64,000 nucleotides of DNA from an uncultured Spirochaetota bacterium (GCA_963734545.1 CAVTHO010000004.1:416001-480000); one strand, 5' to 3'; counted from the stretch's first letter, positions 50,861 through 63,506 are shown. Notes: generated by a model from the sequence alone, not told the origin. Numbers and translations: made by a program.

Positions 50861-53449
50861 ATGGAAAAACTGAAGGTCTCCAACGGCATTTTCTGGGTCG
50901 AGGTGCCGGAAGCTGATCTCCGAATCCTCTGCGGATGCCCGGCGGACAGCGTCAAGCACCTGATGAAGCGCGGCCTCATTGCGGAGCGGCAGAAGGCGGG
51001 GGTCAGCTACGAGACCGGACCCAACGCCATCCTGCTGTGCGACTCGCCCATCCAGAATGGCTGTTTCACCAATCTCTCCGAGTTCCCCGTCCTGCAGATG
51101 CTCTACCGGCAGGGCATGATCATCCCCGGGCACCCGAACAATACCGGCCGGAAGCCGATGCTCATCGGCCTCGAAGACCAGGTGCGCTCGCAGGCGCAGT
51201 ATATCTTCCGCGGCAACTACGGGCTGGCGTCGGAAGAAGAGATCACGGCGTGCGGCGTGCCCGCCGAAACCGCGCGTGAGATGATGCGTATGAAGCGCTG
51301 GTTCGCATTCGGCAGGATCCGGGAAACCGAAGAGCTGTTGTCCATGAAGATCGTGGACAAGGACGCCATCGAGCTTGCGCCCGGCGTGTTTGTGCACAGG
51401 AGAGGAATAAACCGCTGGGAGTTCCTGGCCGGCGCCGAATCCCTGGAGGTGGATCTCAACCTGGGCCCCGGTGAGGAATACGAGGCGCCCTTCAACCTCG
51501 GTTCCCACACGCTGCGCCGTGAGTACTTCTCCGTGATCCACATCGGGGAAGGAGACGGATGGGACCCTTCCAAGCCCTGCATGGGGAGCATCCTCTGCAT
51601 CCAGGGCCGGCTGTACCTCATAGACGCGGGCCCGAACATCCTCCACACGCTGCGGGCCCTGGGCATCGGCGTCAATGAGATCGAGGGGATCTTTCACACG
51701 CACTGCCACGACGATCACTTTGCCGGGCTCACCTCCCTGGTGCGCTCGGATCGGCGGCTGCGCTACTTCGCGGCGCCGTACGTGCGGGCGAGCGTGGAGA
51801 AGAAGCTGGCTGCGCTCATGGGCATCGATCAGCGGCGGTTCGCGCGCCTGTTCGACGTGCACGACCTCGTGCCGGGAGAATGGAACGCGGTGGAGGGTCT
51901 GGACGTGCGCCCCGTGTTCGCCCCTCACCCGGTGGAGAACACGGTCCTCTTCTTCCGCGCGCTGGATGAGAAGGGAGTGAAGACCTACACCCACCTTGCG
52001 GACCTGACCTCTCTCGAGGTGCTGGATCAGATGGTGACGAATGATCCGGCGAAAGACGGGATATCCCCGGAAACCCGGGACCTCTTCAAGCGGGAGATGC
52101 TGGAGCCGCTGGATTTGAAGAAGGTGGATGCCGGGGGAGGCCGCATCCACGGAAAGCCGGAGGACTTCTCCACCGACTCCTCGAGAAAGATCATCATGAG
52201 CCACTCGGCTGTCCCGCTCACGGAGGCGCAGAAGGAAATCGGCTCGAGCGCGGCGTTCGGGCAGAGCGACGTGCTGATTCCCGTCCAGCATCAGACCTAC
52301 ATCCTGCGCTCCGCCCACCGCTACCTCAAGACGTACTTCCCCGAGGTCTCCCGGCACGAGCTGGAGATGCTGCTCAACTGCAGCATCGCGGCATTCAACG
52401 CCGGCTCCATCATGATCAGGAAGGGCGAGCGAAACACCGACATCTTCCTGATCCTGAGCGGAACGGCGGAGGTGATCGACAGGGAGGCGGGCTTTCACAG
52501 CCGGCAGGCTGCCGGGGCCCTTGCCGGAGAGCTCTCCGCGCTGTCGAACGAGGCCTCCCACCGGACCTTCCGCGCGGAGAGTGACCTCGCTGCCCTGCGC
52601 ATCCCCTGCGAGACGTACCGGCATTTCATCCGTAGAAACGGCATCGAGGAGTCCGTGCTCAAGGTCCGGGAGAATCGCCAGCTCCTCTTCAATACGCGGC
52701 TGTTCGGCGACATGGTCTCATTTACCGCTCAGCGTGAGATCGCGCGGGTCATGGAGAGACGGCAGATGGCCATGGGAACGTTTGCGCCGCATGACTCGAA
52801 GCTGAGCCTGTTCATTCTGGCGGACGGGGAAATCTCGCTCCTGTCGGACGAGACTCCCATCGAGGTCATCTTTCCCGGAGACTGCTGGGGTGAGATATCT
52901 GTCGTGGAGGGACTCCCGACAGTATGCCGGGCGCTGGCGTTGCGGGATTCGGTATACTACGCCATTCCCGCTGAATCACTGCAGGAGTTCCCCAGCGTCT
53001 ACCTCAAGCTCCTCGAGGTCTTTGACCGGCGCCTGAAGATCATCCGGACGAAGTTCCATTTCGAGTGGCAGGACTTTTACGCCGTGGGCGTTGCGGGCAT
53101 CGATGATGAGCACAAGGAGCTCTTCGGACTTGCGAGTGAGCTGTCGCGAATCTCGACCGCGGAGGGAGCGGGGGCCCGCCGCGAATTGTGGGTGGCGTTT
53201 CTCGAGCGGGTGCGCTCACACTTCAAGAATGAAGAGTCCCTGCTCGAAGCCCGCGGGTATCCCCGGCTGCCGGCCCAGCAGGCGGATCACCGGTTCCTCC
53301 TGTCCGAGCTGGAGGACGTCGTGAAAACGGGCAAGTCCGGTGACGCCCTGCTGAAGGACTGGCTGATCCGCCACACGCTGATCGAGGACCGGCTTTTCCA
53401 GGACTTTTTCGCGGAACGAAGGGTGGGCAAGAAAGCCCGTCGCAGCTGA
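50861..53449 (+). CDS. MBL-fold / 2x cNMP-binding / hemerythrin multidomain protein
   Basis: LCGCPADSVKHL, THCHDDH, two GE-containing cNMP domains, VGVAGIDDEH..HFKNEE..H...D. Confidence 0.88.
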   Translation: MEKLKVSNGIFWVEVPEADLRILCGCPADSVKHLMKRGLIAERQKAGVSYETGPNAILLCDSPIQNGCFTNLSEFPVLQMLYRQGMIIPGHPNNTGRKPMLIGLEDQVRSQAQYIFRGNYGLASEEEITACGVPAETAREMMRMKRWFAFGRIRETEELLSMKIVDKDAIELAPGVFVHRRGINRWEFLAGAESLEVDLNLGPGEEYEAPFNLGSHTLRREYFSVIHIGEGDGWDPSKPCMGSILCIQGRLYLIDAGPNILHTLRALGIGVNEIEGIFHTHCHDDHFAGLTSLVRSDRRLRYFAAPYVRASVEKKLAALMGIDQRRFARLFDVHDLVPGEWNAVEGLDVRPVFAPHPVENTVLFFRALDEKGVKTYTHLADLTSLEVLDQMVTNDPAKDGISPETRDLFKREMLEPLDLKKVDAGGGRIHGKPEDFSTDSSRKIIMSHSAVPLTEAQKEIGSSAAFGQSDVLIPVQHQTYILRSAHRYLKTYFPEVSRHELEMLLNCSIAAFNAGSIMIRKGERNTDIFLILSGTAEVIDREAGFHSRQAAGALAGELSALSNEASHRTFRAESDLAALRIPCETYRHFIRRNGIEESVLKVRENRQLLFNTRLFGDMVSFTAQREIARVMERRQMAMGTFAPHDSKLSLFILADGEISLLSDETPIEVIFPGDCWGEISVVEGLPTVCRALALRDSVYYAIPAESLQEFPSVYLKLLEVFDRRLKIIRTKFHFEWQDFYAVGVAGIDDEHKELFGLASELSRISTAEGAGARRELWVAFLERVRSHFKNEESLLEARGYPRLPAQQADHRFLLSELEDVVKTGKSGDALLKDWLIRHTLIEDRLFQDFFAERRVGKKARRS

Positions 53450-53450
53450 C

Positions 53451-53948
53451 CTACGCCTCCTTCCTGCTCCCGAACTCTATCTTTCCCTTCTGCGCGAGCC
53501 GGGTCAGGAAATAGATCGTGCTTTCCTTTGAAAGCTTGAAGTGCGCGGCTGCCTTGTCCACGTCCACCCCGCCTGATTCTTTCGTGAACTGGAGCATCTC
53601 TTCCTCGATCTGCCCGGCCCATTCGTCGAAAAGGCCGCGCACCTCGGGCGTGGCGAACCGCGCGGTCTGCGCGCCTTCGGTCATTGCGCCCATCATCTTT
53701 CTGCACATGTCCCAGGGCATTTCGCTGTCTGATTCCCCGGCTTTTCCGCCGCCCATCATCATGCGCATCATCCCCATTGGGCCCCCTTCGCCCATCATCT
53801 TGTGCATCATGCCCTCCATCATGCTGCTCTTTTCCTCGGCGGAGAGACCTTCCATGAACTTCTCCATCATGGCTTCCATCGCCTTCTGCTTTTCCTCCGC
53901 GGACATCTTGTCCATCATGCCGTCCATCATCCGTTCTTTGATTCCCAT
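53451..53948 (-). CDS. methionine-rich protein with C-terminal HTH-like domain
   Basis: About 28 Met in 165 aa, nearly all in the N-terminal half; AGGAGG SD. Confidence 0.8.
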   Translation of the reverse strand: MGIKERMMDGMMDKMSAEEKQKAMEAMMEKFMEGLSAEEKSSMMEGMMHKMMGEGGPMGMMRMMMGGGKAGESDSEMPWDMCRKMMGAMTEGAQTARFATPEVRGLFDEWAGQIEEEMLQFTKESGGVDVDKAAAHFKLSKESTIYFLTRLAQKGKIEFGSRKEA

Positions 53949-54226
53949 GGGATCCTCCTGAAACTGTTTAGTGACGCGGTGATCTTGCTGTCGGTGAGCC
54001 GGTAGAGCACAAAGGGCCCCTGTCTCGTTGTCTGCACGATCGAGACCTGCTTCAGGACCTTCAGGTGGTGGGACACGAGGGGTTGTGAGAGCTTGAGGGC
54101 CTTCACGACCTCGTTCACCGACCGCTCTTCCTTCTCCAGAAAGAAGATGATCCGAAGTCGGTTCACGTCCGCCAGGGTCTGAAAAAGCGCGCTCAGGGTT
54201 TCCAGCTCATTCATATAAATAGCCAT
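53927..54226 (-). CDS. ArsR/SmtB family repressor
   Basis: FQTLADVNRLRI, SQPLVSHHLKVL, Y.L. Confidence 0.92.
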   Translation of the reverse strand: MAIYMNELETLSALFQTLADVNRLRIIFFLEKEERSVNEVVKALKLSQPLVSHHLKVLKQVSIVQTTRQGPFVLYRLTDSKITASLNSFRRIPWESKNG

Positions 54227-54227
54227 A

Positions 54228-54275
54228 GATATAAATGCTCGTTGATATAATAGGGTCAGAAAGCGGATCTGTCAA
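54228..54275 (-). promoter_or_regulatory. sigma70 promoter with ArsR-type operator
   Basis: TTGACA-17 bp-TATTAT (54275-54247); imperfect palindrome ATATCAA-N6-TTTATAT just downstream. Confidence 0.75.
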
Positions 54276-54337
54276 GTCTTTTTTTCAAGCCCTGGCTTGT
54301 TTGACAGGCGGAAGCTTTCGTGTTAGCACTTCTGCAG

Positions 54338-55054
54338 GTGAGTGCTTTTCAGAAAGTGTACTTCGATCTGGTCTACAATCCGCTCTATGACGCCACCACG
54401 GCGAGGCTCAGCCGCTACAAGGCCCTTCAGCAGAAATGCCTCCAGGCGCTGGATCTGGAGGACGCCGGCAGCCTCCTGTGCGTGGGCCTCGGGACAGGCA
54501 ACGAGCTGGTGGCTGCCCTGCGGGCTGCCGCGCAGGTCAGGGTTTCGGGGATCGATCTTTCACCCTCGGCCCTGGCATCGAGCAGGCGGAAGCTGCGCCT
54601 TGCGGGCAGAACGGCAGACCTGCAGATCATGGACGCCTCCGCCATGCGCCACCCCGACGGCAGCTTCGATCGCGTGCTGTGCGTGCACGTCCTGGACTTC
54701 GTGGACAACCCGGGCCGGGCGGTTCGGGAGATCGTGCGCGTCCTGGCCCCGGGCGGCCGGTTCGTGATAACATTTCCTTCCCGGTTGGAGGGGCCCGCCC
54801 TTGGAGCGGCACTTGCGCGGGACGAGGTCCGCACCGCACTGCGCTCCGGCCGTCATCCCCTGGCCGTAGTGACGGATCTGCTGTTCAAGTTCATAATGGC
54901 CATTGTGTACGTGCCGCTGCTGGCGCGCAGCGGGCATCGCGTTTTTTCCGCGCAGCAGGTGCGCGCCCTTTTCGAGAAGCTGCCGGTGCGCGCGCTGGCA
55001 GTCGAGGAAGAGCGTGCGTACCAGGACTTCATTGTGACAGGAGAAAAGTCGTAA
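54338..55054 (+). CDS. class I SAM-dependent methyltransferase
   Basis: VGLGTG, GIDLS, MDA, FDRV, EIVRVLAPGG; TAATG overlap with GH3 gene. Confidence 0.88.
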   Translation: MSAFQKVYFDLVYNPLYDATTARLSRYKALQQKCLQALDLEDAGSLLCVGLGTGNELVAALRAAAQVRVSGIDLSPSALASSRRKLRLAGRTADLQIMDASAMRHPDGSFDRVLCVHVLDFVDNPGRAVREIVRVLAPGGRFVITFPSRLEGPALGAALARDEVRTALRSGRHPLAVVTDLLFKFIMAIVYVPLLARSGHRVFSAQQVRALFEKLPVRALAVEEERAYQDFIVTGEKS

Positions 55055-56665
55055 TGCTGCCCGAGGACGCCTATTTCAAGACCCTTGACAGCCCGGAGCT
55101 GTGGAAACGCTACTGCGGTTTCCTGGACCTGACCGTCGAGGACTTCATGCAGATCCAGCGCTCGCTGCTCGCGGAAGAGCTGTCCCTGGTGGCGGACAGC
55201 ATCCTCGGCAGGAAGATCCTCGGGGCCAGGCCGCCGCTCTCCATCGAGGAGTTCCGCCAGTCCGTGCCCTTCACGACCTACAGTGACTACGAGCCGTACC
55301 TGAGCGAGAAGCGCGAGGATGCGCTCGCCGCCAGACCCGCCGCATGGTGTCATTCCTCGGGCCGCAGCGGAAAGTTCAAATGGGTCCCCCACAGCGAGCT
55401 GTTCATGGAGAAGGCCACCCGCAACTGCATGGCGGCCCTCATCCTGTCCGCCGCGTCCCGCCGCGGCGAGATCGCGCTCGCGCCCGGCGTCCGGATCCTC
55501 ACCGTGCTTCCCCTCGCGCCCTACACATCGGGCACCATCTTCGAGCACGTGAGAAAGCGGTTCACCTTCCAGCCCCTGCCGCCGCCGGAATCCGTGGAGT
55601 CACTCTCCTTTCCCGAGCAGGTCAGCCGCGCCTTCCAGATGGCGCTCAGGGACGGGTTCGATTTTGCCGGTGCCATCGCCAGCGTGCTCGTGCGGATGGG
55701 GGCGCAGATGGCGGGCCATGCCGCAAGGACCTCGAAGCTGTCCCCGGCCGCGTTCCATCCCAAGGTGCTTTTCCGACTGCTGCGCGGCCTTGTCAGAAGC
55801 CGGCTCCAGAACCGGCCCGTGTATCCACGGGACCTGTGGAGCTCCCAGGGGGATCCTGGCCGGGGGCGTGGATACCAGCATCTACTGCGACGACATCGAG
55901 AAGTACTGGGGCGTCACCCCCTTTGACATGTATGTGAGCACCGAGACCCTGTTCGTCGCAATGCAGAGCTGGGCCAAAGCGCACATGACCTTCCTGCCGG
56001 ATTCGGTCTTCCTGGAGTTCGTTCCCCACACCGGCAGGGAAGGAGCGGAGCCGAGGCGGGACAGCGCCCTGCTGCTGGACCAGCTCGAACCGGGCGGCCT
56101 CTACGAGGTGATCGTCACGCAGTTCCACGGCATGCCCCTCCTGCGCTACCGCATCGGGGACGTGATCAGGGTGGTGAGCATCGGCGATGAAAAGACGGGA
56201 ATAAAGCTGCCCCAGGTCGAGGTCCGGCGGAAAGTCGGGGAGGCGATCAACCTCGGGAGCCTGTGCAACCTGGACGAGCGGGCGCTGTGGAGCGCCATCG
56301 CGGCCTCGGGCATTCCCTATGCCGAGTGGACGGCCCTGAAGGAGTACGATCATCATCAGACGTTTCTCCGGCTGATCATCGAGCTGAAGGCGCCCTGCAC
56401 CGCGAAAGAGGTCAGCCGGCTCGTGCACGATGAGCTGAAGAAGGTGGACCTGGACTACGAGGACGTCGAAAGGTTTCTCGGGCTCAACCCGGTCCGCACG
56501 ACCATCATCTCCGCGGGGAGCTTTGCGCGCTATGTCGAGGCGAGGATCCGCGAAGGTGCCGTGCTCTCCCACCTGAAGCCCGCGCACGTGAACCCATCGT
56601 CCGAGATGCTCAAACTGCTGCTCGGTGTGGGCTCGATAGTGGATGAGGAGAGACTGCGACAATGA
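55054..56665 (+). CDS. GH3 family acyl-acid amido synthetase (adenylating enzyme); frameshift near 55845
   Basis: VPFTTYSDY, SSGRSGKFKWVP, YVSTE, LLRYRIGD (three GH3/ANL motifs). Confidence 0.85.
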
Positions 56666-59482
56666 GCAACGCCGGTTTCGTTCTCAGCCCGCTGATCGCG
56701 GCGGCCATGACCTGCATCCTTATCATCCTGGTTTTTCCCGCGATCTACCGCGACAGGAGCCGCCAGGTCTTCCTTCTCGTTCTGCTCAGCCTCGAGCTGT
56801 GGGCGCTCTGCACATTCGCAATGCGCTTCAGCCGGACCACGGACGCGGTCCTGATCTGGGACCGCCTGATATCCGCCTGCGTCATGGGCCTGTACGCGAC
56901 CTTCTTCCACTTCTGCCACCTCTACCTGGGCCGCAAGAGCCGCTGGCCGATGTACATCCTGTACGCGGGGACGCTCACGGCAATGGCGATCGGGCTGTTC
57001 ACGGACCTCGTGGTCAGGGGTGTCACGCGGCTCGATATCGGGTACGCCCCCCAGGTCGGTCCTGCGGCCTACGCGATGTTCGCTCCCATGCAGGTGCTCA
57101 TCATCGCAAACATGATCCGGCTCCTGCACGCGCGGCGCCGAGAAGCCTCGCTGTTCATCCGCAGGCGCCTGCTGGCCCTTGCCCTCGCCGGGCTGCTCCC
57201 GTTCTTCGGGGCCGTCGCGGACGGCTTCACGGATCTCCCTCCCATGGGGATCTGGGCCAATCTCGCTTTCTGCACGATCTGTACCGTCGTCATTCTGCGC
57301 TACCGCCTGTTCGACATCCGCGCGCTCGCCCGCACGGGCCTGGTCCGCCTCCTCATCGGCTCGATGATCGCGGTGCCCTACATCGGCGCGATCCTCGTTG
57401 CGAACGCCCTGCTGCGTGACCGCGAGAGCCTGCTCTGGATCTACGTTGTTTCCATCCTTGCCTACGCGCTGGTCATGTGGCCGGCCTACGAATGGGCGCG
57501 GCGAAGCCTGGACCGGCTCTTCAACAGCGAAAAGTATGACCACCTGCAGGCGGATGCGTGACCTTGCCCGCGGCGCGGACGCCTTCAGCGGGTCCCACGA
57601 GACCTCCAGCAGGCTGACTGCCCTCATGCAGCGGGCGCTGAACGCCACCTCTGTCTCGCTTCTGCAGCCGCTCTCGGACGGCCAGGGAATGTATCTCGTC
57701 GCGAGCAATGGTTCGCCGTGCAGCGCAAAGGGCGCGATCCTCGGCGCGGCGAGCCCCCTCGTCGACTGGTTCCACAAGCACCAGACCACGCTCTCCATGC
57801 GGACCCTGACCGTGGAGCCATTGCTGCAGAACATCCCCCAGGCGGAAAAGGCGGCGCTGGACGAGCTTCGGACCACGCTGCTGGCGCCGCTCCTGACGGC
57901 GCACGGCGCTCTTACGGGCATCCTCGTGCTCGGCCCGAAGGCATCCCGACGGCAGTACAACCTGGACGACATCCAGCTTCTGGAGAACCTCGGCGGTGAG
58001 GCGGCCATGGCGCTGGAGAACGCCGGGCTGTACCGCGACACGGTGCGGGCGCGGGAGACCCTGGAAGCGTGGCTGAACAACCTGCCCGGACGTGGTGGCA
58101 ATCGTGGACCGGGACGACGTCATCCGGTTCCTGAACAGGGAGGGTATCGGACCGGCTGGGCGTTCGGCCCGGGCAGCGCTCGTTCCTGCGCGCGGGGCCC
58201 TCCGGAGGAGAACGGCGCTCCGCGGCGTTTCACGGAGACTATCCGGGGAAGGGAGTACGAGATCGCCTCCGCGCCGCTCGTCGAGCCCGGAGGGCAGCTT
58301 TCCTCGGTGTTCGTGATGCGCGACATCACGGAGCGCAAGCAGGAGCAGGCGGAGAGGGAGCAGCTGGAGGCCCGCGCGCGGCTGGCCAGCCACCTGGCGT
58401 CGATCGGCGAGATGGCGTCGGGGATCGCGCACGAGATCAACAACCCGCTGACCGCGGTGATCGGCTACAGCCAGCTCCTCAACGAAGAAGCGCTGCCGGA
58501 GGAGGCGCGTGAGGCGGTGCGCCAGGTCCGGCAGGGCGCCACCCGGGTGGCCGGCATCGTGCAGAGGCTCCTCACCTTCGCCCGGCAGAGAAAGCCGCAG
58601 CGCGCCGCAGTGGACATGAACGAGGTCATCCGCTCCACACTCGCGCTGCGCGAATATGCCATGCGGACGGGCAACATCTACGTCACGACCCGTCTGGACC
58701 CGTCGCTCCCCCGCACCGTGGCGGACGGCCAGCAGATGCAGCAGGTGCTGCTCAACCTGATCGTCAACGCGGAATGGGCCATGAGCAGCGCCCACGGCAA
58801 GGGCGTGCTTCGGATCGTGAGCGAGAAGCACGGGGAGAACATTCACGTCCTCGTGCAGGATGACGGCCCCGGGGTCCCCCGGGAGATCCAGGACCGCATC
58901 TTCGACCCCTTCTTCACCACCCGGGAGATCGGCCAGGGCACCGGCCTGGGTCTCAGCATCTGCCACGGGATCGTGAGCGAGCACAGCGGCAGGATCTGGG
59001 TGGTGAGCGATGGGGCGCAGGGGAGCGAGTTTCACCTGACCATCCCCATCGTGGCCCCTGATTCTCCGCCCGTGGAGGCCGCCGCGATGCGGCAGGAGCC
59101 CGCCGGATCGCACACGCGCATGCTCGTGGTGGATGACGAGCCGTCGATTCGCGAGCTGCTGAAGGCGATTCTCGAGCCCATGGGCCACCGGGTGGACGAC
59201 GCCGCCGACGGCCGTTCCGCCATCGAGCGCGTGAAGGCGAACCGCTACGGCGTTATCCTGCTCGACGTCCGCATGCCCGACATGAGCGGGCTGGAAGTGT
59301 TCCAGCAATTGAAAGAGATCGCCGGCTCGATCACCTCGCGGGTGGTGTTCATGACCGGAGACCTGATGGCGGAGGAGACTCGCGCGCTGCTGGAGGAGAC
59401 AGGAGCGCCCGCGCTTGCCAAGCCCTTTGAATCGAAGGATCTCATGCTGGCCGTGGAAAGGGTTTTGAAGGCGACGCGCTGA
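56662..59482 (+). CDS. 7TM-GAF-PAS-HisKA-HATPase-REC hybrid histidine kinase; indels near 57552 and 58085-58200
   Basis: Polytopic N-terminus ending ILRYRLFDI; GAF (ILVLGPK...LENA); AHEINNPL; FFTT..GQGTGLGL; VVDDE..DVRMP. Confidence 0.87.
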
Positions 59483-59545
59483 CCGCCTGCCGGCTTGTTT
59501 GCGACCGCCATTTCTTTTCGTCAAAACAATTCGTATATTGTCGCT

Positions 59546-60505
59546 ATGTACAGTAGACTTTCCCTGTTGCGCGGTGCCCGTCCGGCCGCGGAGAACCAGG
59601 TGGGCTGGACCCCGGTGCAAGGCATCGGCAACACGCCGCTCCTGCGCCTGGACCGGATATCGCGCAACCTCCCCCCCCAGGTGCAGCTCCTTGGCAAGGC
59701 AGAGTGGATGAATCCCGGCGGATCGGTCAAGGACAGGCCGGCGGCCAGCATGATCCTGGACGGGGAGCGCCGCGGCGTGCTCCGACCGGGACTTACAATC
59801 ATCGATGCAACGTCCGGGAACACCGGGGTTGCCTACGCAATGATCGGCGCCTCCCGGGGCTATCGGGTAAAGCTCTGCGCCCCGTCGAACACGGAGGAGG
59901 GAATCCTCGGCGCACTTCGCGCATACGGCGCGGAGCTGATCCTCACCGACCCTGCCCAGGCGATGGATGGCGCCAGTCGAGAGGTTGCCCGCATCATGGC
60001 AGCGTCACCGGAGAGCTACTTTTTCCCCGACCAGATGAACAACGATGCGAACTGGAAGGCCCACTACGAGGGCACCGCGAAGGAGATCTGGGAGCAGACC
60101 GGCGGCCGGGTGACGCACTTCGTGGCAGGCGTGGGCACCGGCGGCACCCTGGTCGGCACGGGCAGGAGGCTGCGGGAGCTGAACCCGGATGTCCGCATAG
60201 CGTGCGTCCAGCCGGCATCTCCCCTGCACGGGCTCGAGGGACTGCGCCACCTGCCGACAACGATCGTCCCGCGCATCTACGACCCCACGCTTTCCGATGA
60301 GACAGTGGCCGTGGAGACCGAAGCGGCGCAGGCAATGGTCGTGCGGCTGGCCCGGGAGGAAGGGATTCTCGTGGGAGTGTCCGCGGGGGCCGCGGTAGTG
60401 GCAGCGCTCGCGGTGGCTTCCCGGCTGGAACGCGGTGTCGTGGTGACGGTGCTGCCGGAAGGCGGCCGCAGGTTCATCAACGAGAGTTTCTGGGAGGGAG
60501 CATGA
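59546..60505 (+). CDS. cysM: PLP-dependent cysteine synthase (CysM-like)
   Basis: IGNTPL, NPGGSVKDR, TSGNTG, GTGGT; TATATT-6 nt-ATG upstream. Confidence 0.9.
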   Translation: MYSRLSLLRGARPAAENQVGWTPVQGIGNTPLLRLDRISRNLPPQVQLLGKAEWMNPGGSVKDRPAASMILDGERRGVLRPGLTIIDATSGNTGVAYAMIGASRGYRVKLCAPSNTEEGILGALRAYGAELILTDPAQAMDGASREVARIMAASPESYFFPDQMNNDANWKAHYEGTAKEIWEQTGGRVTHFVAGVGTGGTLVGTGRRLRELNPDVRIACVQPASPLHGLEGLRHLPTTIVPRIYDPTLSDETVAVETEAAQAMVVRLAREEGILVGVSAGAAVVAALAVASRLERGVVVTVLPEGGRRFINESFWEGA

Positions 60506-60930
60506 GAGTCATTGTCCCCGCGGAAATCCTGGAGCAGATGCGACGGCATGGCGAGGAGACCTACCCGCACGAATGCTGCGGCTTCATGCTGGGAAGCGCG
60601 GAAGACGGGGTGCAGCGGATCGTGGAGGTCCGCAGCCAGGCCAACGAGCGCACCGAGTCGAAAGAGAACCGGTTTCTGATCACGCCCGAGCAGTTCAAGG
60701 CCGCGGAAACGGCAGCCCGCAAGGCCCGACTTCAACTGGTGGGCATCTATCATTCACATCCCGACAGCCCTGCCCGTCCCTCCGAGTACGACCGGGATCA
60801 CGCATGGCCGTGGTTCAGCTACATCATCGTCTCGGTGAAGAAGGGCAAGGCAGATGAGGCACACGCATGGCAGCTCAAGGACGACCGATCGGGGTTCGAG
60901 GCTTTGAAGCTTGAGAAAGGAGATTCATGA
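60502..60930 (+). CDS. mec: JAB/M67 metallopeptidase (Mec/CysO-Cys peptidase-like)
   Basis: YPHECCG, YHSHP...PS..D JAMM motif; ATGA overlaps on both sides. Confidence 0.9.
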   Translation: MRVIVPAEILEQMRRHGEETYPHECCGFMLGSAEDGVQRIVEVRSQANERTESKENRFLITPEQFKAAETAARKARLQLVGIYHSHPDSPARPSEYDRDHAWPWFSYIIVSVKKGKADEAHAWQLKDDRSGFEALKLEKGDS

Positions 60931-62372
60931 TGACAAAGGTACGTGTGGAGATCCCCACCGCGCTGCGCGCATTCGCCGGCAATCAGGACGCGGTGGAGGT
61001 GGCGGGAGAAACGGTGGGAGAGCTCCTGCAGGGACTGGCCAGCGCCTACCCGCAGATGAAGAAGCACGTTTTCGACGATCAGGGCAAGCTGCGCAACTTC
61101 GTCAATGTCTACGTCAACGACGACGACATCAAGCACCTGGACAAGGAGCAGACGCGCGTGGGCGCGAAGGACGTGATCAGCATCATCCCGTCCGTGGCCG
61201 GCGGGTCGGATCACGGCGGCAACGGAGCGCTCACCCAGCAGCAGGTCCAGCGCTACAGCCGGCACCTCATCATGCCGGAAGTCGCCATGGAAGGGCAGCA
61301 GAAGCTGCGCCACGCGCGTGTGCTCGTGGTCGGCGCAGGGGGGCTCGGCTCGCCGGTGCTCTCCTACCTGGCGGCAGCGGGAGTGGGAACGCTCGGGATC
61401 GTGGATTTCGACACGGTTGATTTCACCAACCTGCAGCGACAGATCATCTATTCGACGGGGGACGTGGGCAGGCCCAAGCTCGAGGCAGCGGCGGACAGGA
61501 TCCGCGCCATGAACCCGGATGTCCGGGTGGTGATGCACGAGGATCGCCTGACTTCTGAGAATGCGCTTTCGATACTGAAGAACTACGATGTGGTGGTTGA
61601 CGGAACCGACAACTACCCTACCCGCTACCTTGTCAACGATGCCTGCGTGATGCTCGGGATCCCCAATGTCTATGGCAGCATCTTCCGGTTCGACGGCCAG
61701 GCCTCGGTATTCTGTCAGAAGGACGGTCCCTGCTACCGATGCGTCTATCCTTCCCCTCCGCCCCCCGGGCTGGTTCCAAGCTGCGCGGAGGGAGGCGTTC
61801 TCGGAGTTCTCCCCGGCATCATTGGAACGATCCAGGCCACCGAGGCGGTCAAGATCATTTTGGGCAAGGGCACCACGCTTGCGGGGCGTCTCCTTGTCCT
61901 GGACGCCATGAAGATGCACTTCCGCGAGCTGAAGCTGAGGAAAGACCCCGCCTGCCCCGTCTGCGGCGAGCATCCCACCATCAAGGAGCTCATCGACTAC
62001 GAGCAGTTCTGCGGCATCCGCGGTGAGGAGATGGAGGCCAAGGACCTGGGCAAAGAGTGGGAGATAAGCCCCCTGGCGCTGCAGGAGAAGATCCGGGCGG
62101 GAGATGATCTGGTCATCCTCGATGTCCGCAACCCCGAGGAGGCGCAGATCTCGCGGATCCAGGGCAGCATCCTCATTCCCCTCGGCGAGCTGCCCGAGCG
62201 CGTGGCGGAGCTGAACACGGCGGACCAGATGGTAGTGCACTGCAGAATGGGCGGACGCAGCGCCAAGGCCGTGGAGTTCCTCCGCTCGGTGGGATTCAAG
62301 AAGGTGAAGAACCTCGTAGGCGGCATCAACGCCTGGGCAGAGGAAGTGGACAAGACGATGGCGAAGTACTAG
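60927..62372 (+). CDS. moeB: fusion of MoaD/CysO ubiquitin-like carrier + MoeB adenylyltransferase + rhodanese
   Basis: Beta-grasp ending IIPSVAGG; RYSRH, GAGGLG, NLQRQ, CYRC, CPVC; VHCRMGGRS. Confidence 0.92.
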   Translation: MMTKVRVEIPTALRAFAGNQDAVEVAGETVGELLQGLASAYPQMKKHVFDDQGKLRNFVNVYVNDDDIKHLDKEQTRVGAKDVISIIPSVAGGSDHGGNGALTQQQVQRYSRHLIMPEVAMEGQQKLRHARVLVVGAGGLGSPVLSYLAAAGVGTLGIVDFDTVDFTNLQRQIIYSTGDVGRPKLEAAADRIRAMNPDVRVVMHEDRLTSENALSILKNYDVVVDGTDNYPTRYLVNDACVMLGIPNVYGSIFRFDGQASVFCQKDGPCYRCVYPSPPPPGLVPSCAEGGVLGVLPGIIGTIQATEAVKIILGKGTTLAGRLLVLDAMKMHFRELKLRKDPACPVCGEHPTIKELIDYEQFCGIRGEEMEAKDLGKEWEISPLALQEKIRAGDDLVILDVRNPEEAQISRIQGSILIPLGELPERVAELNTADQMVVHCRMGGRSAKAVEFLRSVGFKKVKNLVGGINAWAEEVDKTMAKY

Positions 62373-62376
62373 TTCG

Positions 62377-63439
62377 CTAGCAGCCGAGAATCTCGAGGCA
62401 GCGATCGTACGCGAACACGCGGTTCCGCCGGCCGCCGGTGAGCTCGCTGGCTATTCCCAGGTTCATCAGCCTGTCAACGCAATTTGCCGCTGCAGGGAAC
62501 GGGATGCCAGCCCTCCTGCAGACCTCTCCGAGCGTCGTGATCGGCCGCTCGCACAGAGCTTTGTATACGTGCAAGGTGCTCGAGCCCGGGCGCAGGCGCG
62601 CAATGTCGGTATTGAACAAAGTGGCGAGCTGTTGTGCCAGGCCGACCGCGTGTGACGCCGTGTCTTCCACGCCTTCCAGGAAAAAGTCCAGCCAGGATTC
62701 CCAGTCTCCCTCAGCCCGCACAAGGTCGAGCAGCCGGCGGTACTGCGGCAGACCGGTCTCTGAAGTAGAGGCTCAGGCAGAGAAAGGGATGGGTCATGAG
62801 GGGCACCAGCATGCGGCTGACCCTGCCGTTACCGTCGAAGAATGGGCGAATCATTTCGAGTTGGACATGCGCCAGCCCGGCTTTAATAAGCGGCGAACAA
62901 GGGCCCTGGATAAACAGCTCGAGGGCGGCCATGCAGTTTTCCACCTGCGCCGGAGGTGGCGGAACGTAATGCGCGGCGCTCGGACGCGTACCGCCTACCC
63001 AGTTTTGCGTGGCGCGGAACACACCAGGAGGCACCCTCCAGCGAGTGCGCGCCAGGAGCACCTGATGCATGTCACGGATCAGCCTGTTGCAGAGCGGAAA
63101 TCCTTTGCGCAAGCCGGCCAGGCCATGCTCAAGCGCAGCAACATAGTCGGATGCGCGAGCGTCCGAACCTCCCTTCAGCTCGAAGAGCAGCAGGTCCATA
63201 AACGAGCACTGGCTGCCATTTATACGCGAGGAGAGCACTGCCTCCCGGCGGATGAATGCGTAGCGAGGGAGCCTGATGCTATCCAGGCGGCAGAGGGAGA
63301 GCATCGCCCTTTCCAGAAGGCGCTGGCGCGAGCTTGAGATTTCAATGGGCGGATCCGGCGGAAGCTCGGCAGGGACGAACGGTCGAATCAGCTCGCTGAA
63401 GCTGGAGACGTGATATTTCCCGGACACACCTCGCCGCAC
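62377..63439 (-). pseudogene. degenerate Fic family protein
   Basis: EAVLSS, FRATQNWVG, IRPFFDGNGR (catalytic His replaced by Arg); frameshift near 62740 and apparent deletions. Confidence 0.78.
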
Positions 63440-63506
63440 TGAGAATAATCTCTCCCATATTAAGGGTTGGAACACCTAACCATTAATATGGACGAGCAAA
63501 ATCCCA

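Follow-up and report, generated by a model that had tools for sequence, protein, structure and literature searches.

What does a GH3-type amido synthetase do when its gene is held between the genes of a methyltransferase and of a membrane-bound sensor? The question is raised by a stretch of 64,000 nucleotides (nt), hereafter called the window, from an uncultured Spirochaetota bacterium (GCA_963734545.1, CAVTHO010000004.1:416001-480000). A cassette of three genes at window positions 54320-59482, on the plus strand like all features below unless noted, encodes a class I S-adenosylmethionine (SAM) methyltransferase, a GH3-family amido synthetase and a hybrid sensor kinase. The source genome comprises 5.14 Mb in 10 contigs with 63% G+C, and its nearest relatives are uncultured Spirochaetota metagenome-assembled genomes (MAGs). 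An initial annotation, made from the sequence of the window alone, had read the three genes as an operon that makes and senses a hormone-like quorum-sensing signal. The start/stop overlaps that it gave were confirmed by reading both junctions. The methyltransferase and GH3 genes meet in a TAATG (55052-55056), where the stop TAA at 55052-55054 overlaps the start ATG at 55054-55056, and the GH3 and sensor genes meet in an ATGA (56662-56665), where the start ATG at 56662-56664 overlaps the stop TGA at 56663-56665. As the comparisons below show, the three-gene cassette is a conserved functional unit.

A conserved three-gene cassette

A GH3 alignment was scanned against one genome per species, which returned 66 loci. 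Close relatives of the window GH3, with 27-99% identity in the best segment, are present in 54 of these (L001-L054); by database labels, 7 belong to Spirochaetota, 2 to Thermodesulfobacteriota or 'Deltaproteobacteria' and 45 to Chloroflexota. The other 12 loci (L055-L066) carry distant GH3 proteins of Firmicutes, Bacteroidales and one archaeon, and neither a methyltransferase nor a sensor partner was found at these. Within the clade, a sensor with a polytopic membrane region and a GAF domain was located directly downstream of GH3 in 46 of the 48 loci that were downstream-informative, defined as having at least 700 nt 3' of GH3. Thirty-four of these sensors were called with the Pfam model HisKA_7TM and five by tblastn to the membrane part of the window sensor (L012, L015, L032, L037 and L042). 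The remaining seven, from Anaerolineae, contain 7-9 hydrophobic segments followed by a GAF domain and can be aligned with the others over their full length. A methyltransferase was observed upstream in 41 of 46 upstream-informative loci, 29 of them of the window type, eight of a second class I type and four membrane proteins of the phosphatidylethanolamine N-methyltransferase (PEMT) kind. Clustering of the open reading frames (ORFs) in the 54 loci and the window revealed no further recurrent gene, the extra clusters being antisense shadow ORFs of the three.

The pairing was also approached from the sensor side. Metagenome contigs were searched with the first 460 residues of the sensor (a 14-row alignment), and the 80 resulting loci, 69 of them with at least 600 nt upstream, were scored with sensor and GH3 profiles. 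With sensor scores of 400 bits or more, all 38 loci have GH3 directly upstream of the sensor; the count is 6 of 9 at 300-400 bits, 2 of 3 at 250-300 bits and 0 of 19 below 250 bits. Because the presence of GH3 tracks the sensor score in this way, one branch of HisKA_7TM-GAF sensors is dedicated to the window GH3 clade, and the pairing is reciprocal. The window sensor forms a divergent branch within HisKA_7TM (PF16927), with other HisKA_7TM proteins of the source genome reaching 191 bits, and its more distant relatives have no GH3 beside them. Only one GH3 gene is present in the source genome, against about six HisKA_7TM sensors. The cassette arrangement is far beyond chance. The recurrent linkage of GH3 proteins to seven-transmembrane (7TM) sensors that the initial annotation anticipated thus holds in both directions, for a single GH3 clade.

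Some loci depart from the usual order of methyltransferase, GH3 and sensor. In L121 (1422-7884) the order is GH3, methyltransferase, sensor, and in L118 (2-6135) a GH3 fragment and a sensor are followed about 1.9 kb on by a second, full GH3, so that this locus may represent two tandem cassettes. Distant sensors, scoring below 200 bits, are preceded in L126, L131, L133, L137 and L144 by a carboxypeptidase-regulatory-like protein of 600-650 residues, which may be a different recurrent partner of distant 7TM-GAF sensors.

Co-diversification of GH3 and sensor, for which the initial annotation had proposed a test, was borne out. Tree distances for GH3 and for the first 460 residues of the sensor were correlated across 39 loci, three loci with broken GH3 genes having been left out (Mantel r 0.87, 0 of 999 permutations as high). 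With paralogues added, the value for 43 loci was 0.86, again with 0 of 999 permutations as high. The same nearest neighbor was found in the GH3 and sensor trees for 31 of the 43 loci, a number reached in 0 of 999 permutations. In five carrier genomes the GH3 clade is represented by 2, 2, 4, 2 and 1 copies, and four of the five extra copies examined are followed downstream by a sensor of the family. The paralogous pairs of a single genome differ widely from one another in GH3 and sensor alike, and match up concordantly with pairs of other genomes (L148 with L150, L151 with L148, L020 with L023, and L021 with L030). This concordance across genomes in both trees indicates that enzyme and sensor evolve as matched pairs, and several old GH3-sensor pairs are retained by small genomes.

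The encoded proteins

The window GH3 is encoded in two pieces, owing to a frame break described further below. The N-terminal piece, residues 1-266 (55054..55851, in an ORF at 55054-55923), contains the first nucleotide-binding motif, HSSGRSGKFKW, and aligns residue for residue with P0001, an intact homologue of 536 residues. The C-terminal piece, residues 267-536 plus the stop (55853..56665), contains the motifs YVSTE and YRIGD and is 92% identical to P0001. Both exceed the Pfam cut-off of 23.6 bits, with 43.2 bits for the N-terminal piece (GH3, PF03321) and 50.7 and 27.3 bits for the GH3_M and GH3_C models (PF23571 and PF23572); NCBIfam gave no family match for GH3. Adenylating enzymes of this kind have a P-loop-like SSG..G..K motif, a Y..TE motif and a YR.GD motif. 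The presence of all three in the window protein, claimed in the initial annotation, was verified: among 100 relatives the motif columns G103, G106, W110, Y293, R364 and D369 are invariant, and E297, Y365 and R366 are nearly so. The existence of nucleotide-binding motifs in GH3 proteins is also stated in PMC12493201. The clade itself is modest in size, with 153 representatives at E values up to 1e-30 among 1.84 billion.

A predicted structure of P0001 (mean predicted local distance difference test score, pLDDT, 87) found its best Protein Data Bank (PDB) matches in the plant enzymes GH3.5, GH3.6, OsGH3-8 and JAR1, with template modelling (TM) scores of 0.65-0.70 and E values of 4e-24 to 2e-22, and PaaK-type ligases ranked behind these. 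By domain models, motifs and fold, the window protein is a member of the GH3 family. It shares with the plant members (GH3.5, GH3.6, OsGH3-8, JAR1/GH3.11 and PBS3/GH3.12) the Pfam family, the two-domain fold and the three motifs. The plant proteins differ in that identity to the P0001 model in structural alignments is 16-19%, that their genes are not beside those of receptors, and that their substrates are phytohormones.

The methyltransferase gene (54320..55054, 244 residues) has two possible starts, GTG at 54320 or GTG at 54338. Its product matches Pfam Methyltransf_11 with 76 bits, in agreement with its first assignment as a SAM methyltransferase, and it contains the SAM motif LCVGLGTGNE and one strongly hydrophobic stretch near residues 183-205. 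No NCBIfam family cut-off is exceeded, all matches being sub-threshold, and the source names of homologues are generic ('UbiE', 'class I SAM-dependent'). Among solved structures, 8ys9, from a bacterial phosphatidylethanolamine N-methyltransferase, is by far the nearest in sequence (E value 1.1e-15, against 5.7e-11 for the next). The second class I type seen in other loci is about 30% identical to the window type over the SAM domain. A PEMT-kind integral-membrane protein takes the place of the soluble methyltransferase in one subclade; it scores 33.8 bits, over the cut-off, in L039, and the membrane proteins of L034, L036 and L038 are 37-64% identical among themselves and to that of L039. PEMT is also found fused to GH3. 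One fusion, P0262, has 744 residues and a PEMT score of 31.7 bits, over the cut-off. A second, PEMT-like fusion of 770 residues is encoded in L150 (1389-7583), the second cassette of a small Dehalococcoidia genome, where it is followed by a beta-ketoacyl synthase and then by a 7TM-GAF sensor. Since membrane methyltransferases of the PEMT type replace the usual enzyme or are fused to GH3 in some loci, the product may be lipid-like. The clan of the PEMT family also includes carboxyl methyltransferases, so methylation of a carboxylate of the conjugate is as possible as N-methylation.

The sensor begins with a membrane part (56662..57552, in an ORF running to 57558) with 7-8 predicted helices, a hairpin with the motif YGYAP and a juxtamembrane helix; this region scores 44 bits against a HisKA_7TM cut-off of 28.6 bits. 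The following ORF (57398..59479) contains, by Pfam, a GAF domain (57596..58021, GAF_3/GAF), a HisKA domain with the H-box AHEINNPL (58406..58591, 58 bits), a HATPase_c domain (58724..59050, 82 bits) and a C-terminal Response_reg receiver domain, which with the stop spans 59123..59482 (85 bits) and makes the kinase a hybrid. The motifs AHEINNPL (the HisKA histidine), DDGPGV and GTGLGL (HATPase_c) and LLDVRMPD (the receiver aspartate) are all present in the translation. The 7TM, GAF, kinase and receiver modules named in the initial annotation were all recovered. The PAS module also named there was not; Pfam finds no PAS domain in the window copy, where the PAS-like region (58086..58200) is scrambled by insertions, and gives a weak PAS_4 match in the intact relatives L001-L003. 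The first 460 residues of the L002 orthologue were modelled with a pLDDT of 82 as seven to eight membrane helices, a beta hairpin with the conserved YGYAP motif, a long connecting helix and a GAF domain. The GAF fold gave the top PDB matches for this model, of which no part but GAF has clear solved relatives. GPCR-like matches to the membrane part were weak (TM score about 0.32), and nothing is inferred from them. In the accessible text of two papers, HisKA_7TM appears as one sensor domain among others, with no ligand given (PMC5847659, PMC6944256).

The 7TM-GAF module is constant across the loci, and the outputs attached to it vary. They include HisKA and HATPase_c, accompanied by a receiver in at least nine loci; HisKA_3 is found in L013, L014, L016 and L018 and HisKA_2 in L028, and an HD-GYP phosphodiesterase domain replaces the kinase in L035, L046 and L053. 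This variation of output around an unchanging input places the functional tie of the enzymes at the 7TM-GAF input module. The initial annotation had likened the locus to systems in which a signal synthase stands beside a membrane kinase. The membrane sensor is indeed the neighbor, and the constant partner is its 7TM-GAF input rather than a kinase, as the three HD-GYP loci demonstrate.

Such a tie might be explained if GH3 and the methyltransferase acted on the sensor protein itself, by amide ligation to its side chains and by their methylation, providing adaptation in the way CheR and CheB do for chemoreceptors. The tight adjacency of the genes, and the tie to the input module whatever the output, would suit this. 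All characterized GH3 enzymes use small carboxylic acids, as seen in the plant GH3 structures and as described for OlsH (PMC12493201), and the PEMT-type membrane replacements together with the ketoacyl synthase in one cassette suggest a lipid substrate; modification of the sensor is accordingly the least likely of the explanations considered here, and a very improbable one. Another possibility is that the sensor detects an acyl or aromatic acid from outside, which GH3 and the methyltransferase then conjugate and methylate so as to inactivate or trap it. The fold is closest to the auxin-conjugating enzymes GH3.5, GH3.6 and OsGH3-8, and plant GH3 enzymes inactivate hormones such as excess auxin by conjugation (mentioned also in PMC12493201). 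The position of the enzyme genes ahead of the sensor gene, in one translationally coupled unit, is not that of a regulated target downstream of the sensor, and no DNA-binding response regulator or transporter recurs among the cassette loci. Nor are HD-GYP outputs an obvious switch for a detoxification operon. The co-diversification of paralogous pairs is a better fit to products and their receptors, though matched pairs of substrate and receptor would also be compatible with it. Handling of an outside acid is on balance quite unlikely.

Candidate product and comparison with known systems

A bacterial precedent for the enzyme pair is found in Singulisphaera acidiphila. As described in 2025, OlsH uses ATP to link free fatty acids to ornithine, independently of coenzyme A or acyl carrier protein, and its operon also encodes the N-methyltransferase OlsG together with the OlsI O-acyltransferase, the product of this one characterized bacterial GH3-methyltransferase pair being a trimethyl-ornithine lipid (PMC12493201). 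With an N-acyl ornithine made by OlsH beside the methyltransferase OlsG, the earlier remark that bacterial GH3 proteins are largely uncharacterized is outdated. Activity of OlsH was reported only from extracts to which free fatty acid had been supplied (PMC12493201). OlsG is described as related to phospholipid N-methyltransferases (PMC12971839), a kinship that extends to the closest solved relative of the window methyltransferase. In both systems the gene of an ATP-dependent GH3-like amide synthetase is beside that of a SAM methyltransferase, a likeness that is drawn from the published description. The two differ in gene order and in the third gene, which in the window encodes a 7TM-GAF sensor and not OlsI; no acyltransferase recurs in the cassette loci, whereas an OlsI-type alpha/beta-hydrolase O-acyltransferase is reported from the same operon in all planctomycete homologues (PMC12493201). 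They differ in distribution as well, in that the Spirochaetota, Chloroflexota and Thermodesulfobacteriota of the window clade are not among the phyla listed for OlsH homologues in the main text of PMC12493201 and PMC12971839, the latter of which requires of a homologue at least 30% identity and 70% coverage to OlsH. The GH3-methyltransferase pair therefore has a published analogue in OlsH/OlsG, and no account of a cassette that joins it to a 7TM sensor was found in the full text of the literature, a search that did not extend to the supplementary trees and accession lists of these two papers.

A mechanism can be proposed in which the three genes act as one conserved cassette with translational coupling. 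In the manner of OlsH, the GH3-type enzyme would use ATP to couple an amino acid to a carboxylic acid, which would most probably be fatty or lipophilic in some other way. The conjugate would then be methylated by the methyltransferase, at the head-group amine or at a free carboxylate, and the amphiphilic product would enter the membrane, where the dedicated 7TM-GAF module of the neighboring sensor would read it. The sensor would relay this to a lineage-specific output, in the window a hybrid histidine kinase. The chemistry of OlsH and OlsG, the kinship to 8ys9, the replacement by and fusion to PEMT, and the ketoacyl synthase of L150 together hint at a lipid-like methylated conjugate. We give an even chance to the proposal that a methylated N-acyl amino acid is made by GH3 and the methyltransferase and detected by the neighboring 7TM-GAF sensor; the class of substrate, which of the two reactions comes first, and the role of the product as sensor ligand are what we infer.

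Several observations weigh against this proposal. The NCBIfam PmtA model gives the window methyltransferase 40 bits against a cut-off of 390, and the second class I type has no affinity to phospholipid methyltransferases, its best PDB relative being a generic methyltransferase. No recognizable methyltransferase is present in 5 of the 46 informative loci (L040, L047, L048, L049 and L051), so methylation may be dispensable. A GAF kinase follows GH3 in L049 and L054, with the membrane part missing or broken; L054 is a long-read assembly, and L049 was taken as one from the naming of its contig. The extra GH3 copy L149 lacks a downstream sensor. Finally, the Mantel correlation by itself could reflect shared ancestry.

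The same enzymes could instead make a bulk aminolipid, methylated or not, with the 7TM-GAF sensor monitoring the state of the membrane or the level of the lipid, so that the molecule would not in itself be a signal. OlsH and OlsG do make such a lipid in Singulisphaera (PMC12493201), and the PmtA affinity and the PEMT replacements and fusions would suit methylation of a membrane-lipid head group. In the clustering of neighboring genes, no O-acyltransferase recurs, neither of the OlsI alpha/beta-hydrolase type nor of the OlsA type, and for this reason the predicted product is single-chain. The presence of two to four deeply diverged GH3-sensor pairs in small genomes would also be unusual for a bulk-lipid pathway, and a strict one-to-one tie to a sensor is not known for the OlsBA, OlsF and OlsHI loci from the main text of PMC12493201 and PMC12971839. 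A purely structural lipid thus appears unlikely, with a better prospect than either the outside acid or modification of the sensor. With regard to signalling between cells, the data agree no better with a quorum circuit than with a role in membrane lipids or a signal confined to the cell.

The gene layout nevertheless invites comparison with quorum sensing. In PhcB-PhcS of Ralstonia and in CqsA-CqsS and LuxM-LuxN of Vibrio, the gene of a signal synthase is beside that of a polytopic membrane sensor kinase, and one of these synthases, PhcB, is a methyltransferase whose product is a fatty-acid methyl ester. The cassette resembles these in that a putative synthase gene adjoins a membrane sensor gene, in 46 of 48 GH3-seeded loci and in all 38 of the top sensor-seeded ones. 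It differs in that its output is not always a kinase, and the likeness is one of gene layout. Matches of the window sensor to LuxQ and other NCBIfam models involve the kinase core only and are far below the cut-offs. It is conceivable, if doubtful, that the cassette represents a new class of cell-to-cell signalling, in which a lipo-amino acid carrying a methyl group (an N-acyl amino acid methyl ester, for instance) would diffuse between cells and be read by a dedicated HisKA_7TM-GAF receptor, with several private channels per genome in Dehalococcoidia, Anaerolineae and some Spirochaetota. If so, anaerobic sediment bacteria with no known quorum-sensing system would possess a hormone-like language, bacterial GH3 chemistry would extend from a membrane-lipid pathway (OlsH) to signalling, and the first candidate signal-receptor pairs would be at hand for Dehalococcoidia and Anaerolineae, which are hard to grow and important for dechlorination and sediment carbon cycling. 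HisKA_7TM is widespread, and its strict, reciprocal and co-diversifying pairing with a small-molecule ligase gives one branch of these sensors a class of candidate ligands that can be tested. The cassette is short, with three genes, and its enzymes require no more than ATP, SAM, an acid and an amino acid, so that it lends itself to testing in cell-free extracts.

Frame-breaking insertions and neighboring genes

The window copy of the cassette is interrupted by five single-base insertions, the indels noticed in the initial annotation, which are confined to the GH3 gene (one) and the sensor gene (four). By comparison with relatives, an extra G at 55852, in a run of five, breaks the GH3 frame exactly between residues 266 and 267, and the pieces of 266 and 270 residues add up to the 536 of intact P0001. 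In the sensor gene, an extra base at 57553 disrupts the reading frame after the membrane part and before GAF. Frame-by-frame comparison with L001-L003 placed the other three at about 58086, 58148 and 58200, where they jointly preserve the frame and garble about 40 residues of the PAS-like region. Every insertion can be read as a G added ahead of GA: GGGG[G]ATC, GCG[G]ATG, CCC[G]GAC, ATC[G]GAC and TCC[G]GAG. Judged from the sequence, this shared pattern suggests that the assembly method erred systematically in its consensus, perhaps in connection with a base-modification motif.

Relatives assembled from Illumina reads (L002, L003, L004 and L015) are unbroken at all five sites, and the long-read MAGs L001, L005 and L006 show breaks of the same type at different positions. 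Contigs from four wetland metagenome runs lack one base at 55843, 57552, 58085, 58147 and 58194/58201. These contigs are 90-99% like the window, number one or two per site at a depth of 3-9 and possibly derive from other strains; the base at 55843 is absent from one contig of run X3, and that at 57552 from one contig of run X2. Because relatives and short-read contigs lack them, the five insertions are most probably errors of long-read assembly, and the locus is probably functional in the organism. In the source genome rpoB is unbroken, as are five neighboring genes, which speaks against a general error problem; such errors would not be genome-wide.

The insertions might alternatively be real, leaving GH3 and the sensor as pseudogenes in the source strain, whatever the cassette does elsewhere. 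Their packing into 2.4 kb of two adjacent genes is in keeping with this, as is the intact state of the methyltransferase gene, of the nearby cysteine-synthase-like, JAB and ThiF-type genes and of rpoB. The cassette contains no in-frame stops, deletions or excess substitutions, and the GH3 halves are 90-92% identical to intact relatives; all five events are single added bases that fit an extra G before GA, and a neighboring Fic gene is equally broken. Taken with the short-read MAGs and contigs that are free of the extra bases and the long-read MAGs that are broken elsewhere, this makes a dead locus improbable, and assembly error is the preferred explanation. Programmed frameshifting was considered and rejected, as the relatives encode the same proteins in a single frame. 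The Fic/DOC-family gene (62380-63475, minus strand) is split near 62746 by a single-base frameshift, a defect of the same type as in the cassette; over the corresponding stretch it is single-frame in L001 (401 residues) and in L002, where it ends at the edge of the locus.

A scan of 53800-60000 for consensus promoters and terminators was uninformative: on the plus strand it revealed neither a promoter upstream of the cassette nor any terminator-like site. With almost no gap after the sensor, a cysteine-synthase-like pyridoxal phosphate enzyme, a JAB/MPN peptidase and a fused ThiS-ThiF-rhodanese protein are encoded at 59495-62372; this trio resembles a sulfur-carrier-protein cysteine route of the CysO/CysM/Mec type. 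It follows the cassette in the nearest relatives L001 and L002 only, with none of its genes recurrent among the loci, and for this reason it was not counted as part of the unit. Divergent from the cassette, at 53451-54226 on the minus strand, are an ArsR/SmtB regulator with a sub-threshold match to TsoR (90 against 115 bits) and a protein of 165 residues with a sub-threshold match to the model 'LULAXC motif selenoprotein TsoA'. Further upstream, 50861-53449 encodes a protein of 862 residues that combines a metallo-beta-lactamase fold with two cyclic-nucleotide-binding domains and a hemerythrin domain, and that is conserved in L001 and L002.

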